NCBI RefSeq assembly: GCF_013167455.1
Contig: NZ_CP038328.1
Source of the DNA: Escherichia coli O157:H7
GTDB lineage: Bacteria > Pseudomonadota > Gammaproteobacteria > Enterobacterales > Enterobacteriaceae
DNA: 64,000 bases
Reading direction: 5' to 3' (one strand)
The notes beneath the pieces were generated by a model. The model was not told the origin of the DNA. It saw nothing but the letters and a program-made list of their open reading frames with translations, and did not search any database. The position numbers and the translations under genes were made by a program. The first letter of the stretch is position 1; every line of letters starts with the position of its first letter. Shown in pieces: positions 9,659 through 11,185 of the stretch.

Positions 9659-10396
9659 ATGCTGCAAAATATTCGAATTGTGCTGGTGGAGACGTCACAC
9701 ACCGGCAATATGGGTTCTGTTGCCCGTGCCATGAAAACAATGGGATTAACCAATCTGTGGCTGGTTAATCCACTGGTGAAACCTGACTCCCAGGCGATTG
9801 CCCTGGCGGCGGGGGCCAGCGATGTGATTGGTAATGCTCACATCGTCGATATGCTCGACGAAGCGTTAGCCGGTTGTAGCCTGGTGGTGGGCACCAGCGC
9901 ACGTTCCCGCACGCTGCCGTGGCCGATGCTCGACCCGCGCGAATGCGGTCTGAAAAGCGTTGCTGAAGCGGCAAATACCCCGGTGGCGCTGGTGTTTGGT
10001 CGCGAACGTGTCGGCCTGACCAATGAAGAGTTGCAGAAGTGTCATTATCATGTCGCGATTGCCGCTAACCCTGAATACAGCTCGCTGAACCTGGCGATGG
10101 CGGTTCAGGTTATTGCCTATGAAGTGCGTATGGCCTGGCTGGCAACTCAGGAAAATGGCGAGCAGGTCGAGCATGAAGAGACGCCGTATCCGCTGGTCGA
10201 TGATCTGGAGCGTTTTTATGGTCATCTGGAACAAACGCTGCTGGCAACCGGTTTTATCCGTGAAAACCATCCGGGGCAGGTGATGAATAAATTGCGCCGT
10301 CTGTTTACCCGTGCGCGCCCGGAAAGCCAGGAATTGAATATCCTGCGCGGGATTCTGGCTTCTATAGAGCAGCAGAATAAAGGTAATAAGGCCTGA
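9659..10396 (+). CDS. trmJ: tRNA (cytidine/uridine-2'-O)-methyltransferase, SpoU family
   Basis: 245 aa ORF; divergent from suhB. Confidence 0.92.
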
Positions 10397-10422
10397 GGGC
10401 TAAGCCAGATAAGTGCACGGAC

Positions 10423-10463
10423 GGTCCCCTCGCCCCTTCGGGGAGAGGGTTAGGGTGAGGGGA
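10423..10463. repeat. GC-rich imperfect palindromic intergenic repeat (BoxC-like)
   Basis: ggtcccctcgccccttcggggagagggttagggtgaggggaac just after trmJ stop; nested inverted repeats, no T-tract, so not a simple terminator. Confidence 0.35.
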
Positions 10464-10563
10464 ACAGGCCTGCGCTAATGCGAATAATTGCCCTCAACCC
10501 GCCCATGGTCTGGAAGGATAACAGGTACAAACGCCACGATAAAAAAATGGCACTGAAGGTTAA

Positions 10564-10614
10564 ATACCCGACTAAATCAGTCAAGTAAATAGTTGACCAA
10601 TTTACTCGGGAATG
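10564..10614 (+). promoter_or_regulatory. IscR operator (type 1 sites) in iscR promoter
   Basis: ATACCCGACTAAATCAGTCAAGTAA at 10564..10588 matches the type 1 IscR motif ATASYYGACTRwwwYAGTCRRSTAT at 24 of 25 positions; a second weaker site follows. Confidence 0.7.
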
Positions 10615-10696
10615 TCAGACTTGACCCTGCTATGCAATACCCCCACTTTTACAATAAAAAACCCCGGGCAGGGGCGAGTTTGAGGTGAAGTAAGAC

Positions 10697-11185
10697 ATGA
10701 GACTGACATCTAAAGGGCGCTATGCCGTGACCGCAATGCTTGACGTTGCGCTCAACTCTGAAGCGGGCCCGGTACCGTTGGCTGATATTTCCGAACGTCA
10801 GGGAATTTCCCTTTCTTATCTGGAACAACTGTTTTCTCGTCTGCGTAAAAATGGTCTGGTTTCCAGCGTACGTGGACCAGGCGGTGGTTATCTGTTAGGC
10901 AAAGATGCCAGCAGCATCGCCGTTGGCGAAGTGATTAGCGCCGTTGACGAATCTGTAGATGCCACCCGTTGTCAGGGTAAAGGCGGCTGCCAGGGCGGCG
11001 ATAAATGCCTGACCCACGCGCTGTGGCGTGATTTGAGCGACCGTCTTACCGGTTTTCTCAATAACATTACTTTAGGCGAACTGGTTAACAACCAGGAAGT
11101 GCTGGATGTGTCTGGTCGTCAGCATACTCACGACGCGCCACGCACCCGCACACAAGACGCGATCGACGTTAAGTTACGCGCTTAA
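10697..11185 (+). CDS. iscR: Fe-S cluster assembly transcriptional regulator (Rrf2 family)
   Basis: 162 aa [22 protein letters not shown] with Cys ligands further on. Confidence 0.95.

Follow-up and report, generated by a model that had tools for sequence, protein, structure and literature searches.

The GC-rich repeat that follows trmJ in the 64,000-nt stretch of Escherichia coli O157:H7 DNA analysed here (the window) is, with near certainty, a copy of the BoxC/PIT/TMECO repeat. It belongs to a decayed inverted-pair composite of ~125 bp (about 10397–10518), of which it forms the left, intact arm, and this composite occupies a strain-variable cassette between trmJ and iscR in which other strains carry REP units. 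The copy is very probably a relic of a non-autonomous, MITE- or REPIN-like repeat without a dedicated function at this locus. The identification itself is already known. What we add is the anatomy of the composite, its exact alternation with REP units and a family-level lead to nuclease genes of the DUF559 family.

Location and anatomy of the element

Positions 10300–10700 of the window are 100% identical to many O157:H7 chromosomes, in which the flanking genes are annotated as trmJ and iscR. A direct sequence check places the 43-nt string ggtcccctcgccccttcggggagagggttagggtgaggggaac at 10423–10465, starting 27 nt past the trmJ stop codon and ending 232 nt ahead of the iscR ATG (10697). The sequence-only reading of this DNA had the start right and closed the element at 10463, 2 nt short of its true end. 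The genes and the parts of the core are as follows.

9659–10396, + strand: trmJ coding sequence, 245 aa (ORF list and RefSeq annotation of identical O157 records)
10426–10462, + strand: BoxC/PIT/TMECO core, type A, one mismatch (published pattern exact, 0 by chance)
10427–10435, + strand: C-block, CCCTCGCCC
10436–10440, + strand: loop 1
10441–10449, + strand: G1, GGGAGAGGG, complement of the C-block with one G.A mismatch
10450–10452, + strand: loop 2, TTA
10453–10461, + strand: G2, GGGTGAGGG, mirror copy of G1
10697–11185, + strand: iscR coding sequence, 162 aa (ORF list and RefSeq annotation of identical records)

The element had been described as a nested palindrome. Its inverted repeats are real: the C-block and G1 form eight of nine Watson–Crick pairs, and a repeat search finds inverted arms of 27 nt at 10409–10435 and 10453–10479 that are 70% complementary. 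It is not a simple palindrome, however, as the third block mirrors G1 at all nine positions and gives a hairpin-plus-mirror (triplex) motif. Purine-motif triplex rules allow all nine triads of this copy, and in this symmetric variant G2 is also able to pair with the C-block. Folded as + strand RNA, the element reaches −37 kcal/mol against −25.9 ± 3.2 in shuffles (z = −3.4; 1 of 200 shuffles was as good), and the fold of the − strand has z = −2.3. Two sub-patterns of 22–24 nt and the published three-block pattern each have one match in the 64-kb window, with 0.00 matches to the sub-patterns expected from 100 dinucleotide-preserving shuffles. Searches of the window for further BoxC copies, at ≤3 mismatches or with half-motifs, found none. 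Rfam covariance models gave chance-level matches only in the element region (Antizyme_FSE, 18.4 bits vs a gathering score of 40, E = 0.59).

Identity as a BoxC/PIT/TMECO repeat

BoxC is reportedly due to Bachellier et al. in the 1990s and the PIT element to Hoyne and Maher in 2000; to our knowledge, no origin, partner or function of BoxC has become known since the 1990s. The sequence-only reading had called the element BoxC-like, and this is borne out by an exact match to the published pattern, by a near-identical copy in K-12 and by an entry in the published catalogue for O157:H7 Sakai. TMECO is the element earlier named BoxC and later PIT (PMC4666352), and its triplex motif is defined by CCCTCNCCC-N3-6-GGGNGAGGG-N3-GGGNGAGGG (Holder et al. 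2015, PMC4666352). Window positions 10427–10461 (+ strand) match this pattern exactly, as its single match and with 0 expected in shuffles. Subtypes are told apart by loop 2, which is TTA in type A and CCG in type B, and by the presence or absence of one mismatched triplet (PMC4666352). With a TTA loop 2 and one G.A stem mismatch, the trmJ–iscR copy is of type A ‘mm’, the commonest K-12 subtype (PMC4666352), and one loop-1 base separates it from K-12 copy no. 7.

The identical 36-mer is no. 29 in Table S8 for O157:H7 Sakai (3383056–3383021) and the sole Sakai entry with such a sequence (PMC4666352). In NC_002695.2 the 36-mer is found at 3383156–3383191, between iscR (3382433–3382921) and trmJ (3383222–3383959). 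We attribute the offset of 135 nt to the record version; apparently, the trmJ–iscR copy had already been catalogued for Sakai. In its three-block pattern, TTA loop 2, single stem mismatch, intergenic position and multi-copy nature it is the same as the BoxC/PIT/TMECO family, and like many members of that family it is paired with an inverted type-B copy in a strain-variable locus. Nothing of substance differs; here the partner arm has decayed.

Copy number and the paired composite

The element had also been read as a dispersed repeat, and a genome-wide search shows that it is one. With an 81-nt query, the median E. coli genome has 19 matching places (range 2–35; 15 in O157 records), and with a 136-nt cassette query it has 17. 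The motif is not unique in the genome, because E. coli genomes hold a median of 17–19 similar places. Counted as BoxC-like copies, there are about 1–35 in E. coli genomes and 13–15 in O157 records. Published counts are 11 strict TMECO copies in Sakai (PMC4666352, Table S7/S8) and 22–32 copies in E. coli for BoxC, listed as a 50–56-bp family (PMC2267715).

Homology among copies reaches well past the core. BLAST matches to other loci begin at query position 18–26, which is window 10407–10415, and paralogues align over query positions 22–115 or 22–128, about 95–107 nt at 80–89% identity. The paralogues aligned, at fepB–entC, gcvP–ygfF, barA–gudD, recA–recX and glnH–glnP, are all intergenic. In their unit, a left flank that is conserved (...AAGTGCACAGACAGT) leads into the type-A motif, which is followed by a spacer of ~27 nt (AACAGGCCAGCACTGGTGCGAATAATTA) and an inverted type-B motif (CCCTCACCCCGGCCCTCTCCCTGAAAGGGCGAGGGGG). 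Palindromic A+B pairs have been noted among TMECO copies (PMC4666352), and the reported BoxC unit lengths of 36–56 bp understate the ~95–125 bp over which paralogues align. In the window, the paralogue alignment adds the following parts to the core.

10397–10425, + strand: left flank, GGGCTAAGCCAGATAAGTGCACGGACGGT, partly conserved in E. coli paralogues
10463–10490, + strand: composite spacer, AACAGGCCTGCGCTAATGCGAATAATTG, homologous to the ~27-nt spacer of intact pairs
10491–10518, − strand: degenerate, truncated second arm (inverted type-B), CCCTCAACCCGCCCATGGTCTGGAAGGA vs CCCTCACCCCGGCCCTCTCCCTGAAAGGGCGAGGGGG when intact

An intact paralogue composite folds into one long hairpin (z = −3.1), whereas the window composite does not (z = −0.57) because its right arm has decayed. 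Composites of this kind differ in presence between strains. Strain W619 carries a BoxC-containing insertion of ~174 bp between recA and recX at a site that is empty in K-12 (locus L009, 381–575, vs locus L012). This one comparison of a filled with an empty site shows fuzzy ends and no clean target duplication, with diverged similarity of ~20 nt at the junctions on both sides.

The trmJ–iscR spacer as a variable cassette

The whole 401-nt query is matched by 1,432 of 5,426 E. coli genomes (about 26%). The remaining ~74% match about 69% of it in two pieces that span 373, 464 or 555 bp. We aligned the alleles of the window, KBN10P04869, NA3664, AVS0151, LAM_HS and K-12. The BoxC composite is present in the window and KBN10P04869, one REP pair in NA3664 and AVS0151, two in LAM_HS, and three 91-bp REP-pair (BIME) units in K-12 (locus L001, 1790–2083). 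The window cassette lacks the REP consensus palindrome (GCCTGATGCGACGC... / GCCGGATAAGGCG...), which K-12 and other strains have at that position. With one, two or three tandem REP units per allele (loci L001–L004), copy number is polymorphic too, in addition to the BoxC/REP alternation. The alignment divides the spacer as follows.

10394–10519: variable cassette of the trmJ–iscR spacer, here filled by the BoxC composite (allele alignment)
10520–10696, + strand: iscR upstream region common to the BoxC and REP alleles compared (allele alignment and K-12 sequence)

Divergence starts after ...AAGGCC (10393), and the shared run resumes at (Y)AACAGGTACAAACGCC, from about 10520. BoxC and REP occupants share both breakpoints, the right one of which falls inside the decayed second arm. 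At the left, the trmJ stop codon TGA (10394–10396) lies inside the cassette, and the last codon lies at its edge or inside it (window 10391–10396; K-12 locus L001, 2084–2092). Because the left breakpoint takes in the stop codon, the end of TrmJ differs by allele, being ...NKGNKA* (245 aa) with BoxC and ...NKGNKAE* (246 aa) with REP; a swap of repeats therefore rewrites the last trmJ codon. The trmJ–iscR spacer can be flagged as a hot spot of repeat swapping, with the element annotated as BoxC/TMECO. The 176 nt adjoining iscR is unchanged across all alleles compared.

The element had been placed upstream of the iscR promoter, and the alignment agrees, as the segment common to all compared alleles starts only at ~10520. 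Region 10520–10696 must contain the iscR promoter and leader, the position of the promoter being deduced from this shared segment; a simple scan of the trmJ–iscR region for a consensus promoter found none. The element could in principle regulate iscR in cis, through a binding site or an UP-like element, and its position upstream of iscR on the same strand would fit this. We regard such a role as extremely improbable: the element is 232 nt from the ATG and lies ≥55 nt away from the segment common to the compared alleles, REP units stand in its place in 74% of E. coli genomes, and the same sequence recurs at many unrelated loci.

TMECO loci vary far more than control spacers do, and copies in pairs are prone to losing parts (PMC4666352); the polymorphism at trmJ–iscR fits both tendencies. 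The same variability could instead reflect a functional non-B DNA structure, in which the G-rich single strand, as an intrastrand triplex or G-quadruplex, would be kept for creating a local hot spot of rearrangement or for modulating supercoiling upstream of iscR. Loci with the TMECO motif are more variable than controls (PMC4666352), the trmJ–iscR locus is polymorphic with one breakpoint inside the second arm, and motif variants sampled beside DUF559 genes (see below) keep G2 as the mirror of G1. The mirror-repeat, G-rich blocks are shared with H-DNA and purine-motif triplexes, and the four G-runs with 3-nt loops resemble G-quadruplexes: read directly, GGGG-AGA-GGG-TTA-GGG-TGA-GGGG at 10440–10462 fits the G3+N1-7 pattern (four runs of ≥3 G, 1–7 nt between). 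H-DNA, however, forms from a duplex mirror repeat, whereas the BoxC triplex forms within one strand from three blocks. Single-strand TMECO oligonucleotides do fold into a very stable intrastrand triplex in vitro (PMC4666352), as seen by CD and NMR for type A-mm oligonucleotides one loop-1 base off the trmJ–iscR copy (PMC4666352). The triplex signal was absent, however, in duplex DNA and by in vivo DMS footprinting, and the NMR data spoke against quadruplex formation by the full motif (PMC4666352). Moreover, instability is more simply a by-product of the repeat than a selected function, and no tie to iscR control is apparent. We therefore consider a selected non-B structure very unlikely, and return to a relic that would fill a recombination-prone cassette.

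Transcription signals and function at the locus

The description of the element as lacking a T-tract, and so not a canonical terminator, stands. AACAGGCCTGCG comes directly after the stem in place of a T-tract, and a search of the + strand at 10300–10750 for intrinsic-terminator-like sites found none between trmJ and iscR. The element shares with Rho-independent terminators a GC-rich stem-loop just past a stop codon, but such terminators have a T-tract, which is absent here, and the BoxC family had no terminator activity in published reporter tests. On the − strand, the iscR leader contains a terminator-like hairpin with a T-run at 10661–10675 (GCCCCTGCCCGGGGT + TTTTTATTGT), which may be a chance occurrence, 0.8 such sites being expected in shuffles.

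REP elements stabilise upstream mRNA 3′ ends, and REP hairpins fill the same slot in the alternative alleles. The element could act in RNA by terminating transcription despite its missing T-tract, by pausing the polymerase or by blocking 3′ exonucleases, and would then set the 3′ end of trmJ and limit read-through into iscR. Its sense-strand fold is strong (−37 kcal/mol, z = −3.4), the hairpin begins 31 nt past the trmJ stop codon, and the + strand has no other terminator-like site ahead of iscR. Set against this are the missing T-tract and several published results: PIT/TMECO elements acted neither as promoters nor as terminators and left RNA polymerase unaffected (assays summarised in PMC4666352), TMECO copies have no orientation, strand or gene-class bias and are commoner upstream of genes than downstream (PMC4666352), and the purine-motif triplex does not form in RNA (PMC4666352). 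A dedicated RNA role for the element is, in our judgement, unlikely.

We favour a relic with no dedicated role at trmJ–iscR because the T-tract is missing, the family is inactive in published assays, REPs take its place in three quarters of strains and the iscR-proximal region is unchanged. Relic status is suggested because ycjD, the member of DUF559 tied to the BoxC family, is missing from the O157-type genomes sampled. Side effects are plausible: any RNA that reads through from trmJ would carry a stable GC hairpin, and the DNA, when single-stranded, could fold into a hairpin or intrastrand triplex that favours local rearrangement. The element may also modestly affect how stable trmJ mRNA is or how much transcription reads through into iscR, and, given the REP alternatives, the slot after trmJ may tolerate or favour any stable hairpin. 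The two BoxC sub-alleles have an identical 36-nt core and four substitutions in the flanks, which hints at constraint and is not significant (P about 0.3).

The motif beyond E. coli and its link to DUF559 nuclease genes

We scanned species-representative genomes for the exact type-A core, and obtained at least 120 loci in 1.09 Mb of motif-centred DNA. The matches listed include Enterobacter, Lelliottia, Cedecea, Leclercia, Phytobacter, Pluralibacter and Pseudocitrobacter; Pseudomonas, Stutzerimonas, Methylophaga, Devosia, Asticcacaulis and Azospirillum; and MAGs labelled Chloroflexota, Anaerolineae, Kuenenia and Troglogloeales, where MAG contamination is possible. Among these matches the type-A core is identical across taxa, the flanks are genus-specific and most copies stand in inverted pairs with characteristic spacings. 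Neither trmJ nor iscR was found at any of the species-representative motif loci listed (at least 120, Escherichia not included).

Clustering of the ORFs beside the motifs gave one family in six unrelated taxa among the matches listed, and this family is DUF559 (PF04480; E = 1e-35 to 1e-43). An HMM search of the 1.09 Mb of motif-centred DNA found seven DUF559 ORFs, all seven with a motif ≤106 nt away; a random position would be as close to a motif roughly 5% of the time (loci average 9 kb). The motif lies 0–34 nt past the 3′ end of the DUF559 domain in six of the seven, and four have an additional motif upstream.

Starting from the proteins leads to the same association. A profile built from seven YcjD-like proteins matched 50,423 cluster representatives. 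Hexapeptides derived from the motif (PSPRPSP, PHPNPLP, LSPxGRG, GEGWGE... and the like) occur in 63 of the best 150 of these representatives, which are mutually <50% identical, at a median of 6 residues from the edge of the DUF559 domain. There were 218 such peptide matches outside the domain vs 2 inside it, and 61 of 2,604 control ORFs had any match. Among eight representatives without the peptide signature for which the DNA was checked, seven have the three-block motif upstream and again, inverted, over or just past the stop codon; the eighth comes from an AT-rich genome and has motif remnants only. We regard the physical association of BoxC motifs with DUF559 genes as well supported.

Motif sequence varies by lineage. 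What is kept is a three-way relation: G1 reads as the C-block's reverse complement, and G2 mirrors G1 with A swapped for T. Of 11 asymmetric variants, in motifs curated by hand, 10 have a G2 that follows the mirror rule (8–9 of 9 positions) better than it pairs with the C-block (6–8 of 9), and a triplex or mirror constraint is therefore favoured over a second Watson–Crick hairpin. In Methylophaga (locus L032) and in a metagenome (loci L134/L135), motifs of the GGGAGAGGG type and of the GGGGGAAGG/GGATGGGGG type stand side by side at the same DUF559 gene.

K-12 itself has such a gene. The 3′ end of its ycjD (DUF559) falls within a partial inverted motif, CCCTCTCCCTGAAAGAGCGAGGGGG (locus L133, 1700–1930); past it lies a duplicated 3′ fragment of ycjD that carries a degenerate motif, and beyond that the complete TMECO no. 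9. The gene is present in 3,378 of 5,426 complete E. coli genomes. In phylogroups A, B1 and C it stands between fabI and sapF in place of eefRABCD, and ST11 (O157) has eef (PMC12817139). In an evenly spread sample, ycjD-positive E. coli have 11–26 BoxC-like places (median 17, n = 37) and ycjD-negative ones 1–19 (median 3.5, n = 22; O157-type records 10), a difference that is only suggestive because the split follows phylogroups.

In PDB, the DUF559 proteins have a strong match to 3hrl (E = 2.5e-41) and a weak one to the homing endonuclease I-Bth0305I, in its catalytic domain (3r3p, E = 1e-3). Unlike I-Bth0305I and its Vsr-like homing endonuclease family, the motif-linked DUF559 proteins are free-standing, of ~120 aa, and lie outside introns and inteins. 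YcjD had no match among PADLOC defence models. Our literature search found no paper tying DUF559, COG2852 or ycjD to BoxC, and no functional follow-up of TMECO, PIT, DUF559, COG2852 or ycjD after 2015. The genes flanking TMECO copies have been found to have no common function (Holder et al., PMC4666352).

A putative origin in selfish nuclease cassettes

Our tentative proposal, to which we give slightly less than even credence, is that a widespread family of small selfish cassettes encodes a DUF559 endonuclease (YcjD-like, with a Vsr-type PD-(D/E)XK fold) and has BoxC motifs as its terminal or recognition structures, the action of the protein on the motif being inferred. Solo copies and inverted pairs, such as that after trmJ, would then be gene-less, MITE- or REPIN-like derivatives of DUF559 cassettes, and YcjD would stand to BoxC as RAYT does to REP. 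The nuclease would recognise the three-block fold, kept by covariation, and its activity would account for BoxC loci being unstable.

The comparison with REP/BIME units and REPIN doublets is close in several respects. Both are short, GC-rich intergenic palindromes, often in inverted doublets with a short spacer; REP units share the trmJ–iscR slot with BoxC in other strains; and REP is linked to RAYT as BoxC is physically linked to the one small nuclease gene family that it flanks. There is no sequence similarity between the two, however, and the third, mirror block is found only in BoxC. The partners also differ, being a Vsr-fold PD-(D/E)XK protein (DUF559) for BoxC, whose mobilisation is putative, and an HUH Y1 transposase (RAYT) for REP. 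MITEs, the non-autonomous derivatives of insertion sequences, are likewise about 100–130 bp long, with inverted terminal arms and presence or absence by strain, as are BoxC composites at recA–recX and trmJ–iscR. The BoxC pair, arm(+)-spacer-arm(−), matches the gene-containing cassette, arm(+)-DUF559-arm(−). In contrast to MITEs, BoxC showed no clean target-site duplication in one filled-vs-empty comparison and has no recognised transposase, and we know of no case in which its transposition has been observed. The link to one nuclease family across phyla, together with the three-way covariation of blocks, makes the origin of BoxC experimentally testable. If YcjD binds or cuts the folded motif, this would be the first substrate for DUF559, a family of about 50,000 sequence clusters.

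Other motif arrangements

The Enterobacter loci contain a non-coding, multi-copy repeat of ~400 nt that starts with a type-A motif (locus L085, 1704–2105, and at least 12 other loci, among them L040, L041, L078, L080, L082–L084, L086, L088, L091 and L094). A group II intron was considered for this repeat and rejected, as it has no reverse-transcriptase ORF and no Rfam match and the next gene is SgrR-like. Several contigs end within it. In Pseudomonas (loci L014–L028 and L061–L068) the motifs have conserved 5′ flanks of ~30 nt, GATGTAGCTCnAAGAACAnCTCGGTCAGTC for type A and TTGAAnAGCATGnAGATCGGCTCCCTTTCC for a type with a CTG loop, and stand head-to-head at a spacing of about 88–90 or about 200 nt. 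In an Anaerolineae MAG (locus L102, 3279–3493), unlike the usual inverted pairs, three motifs are repeated directly with a period of 90 nt.
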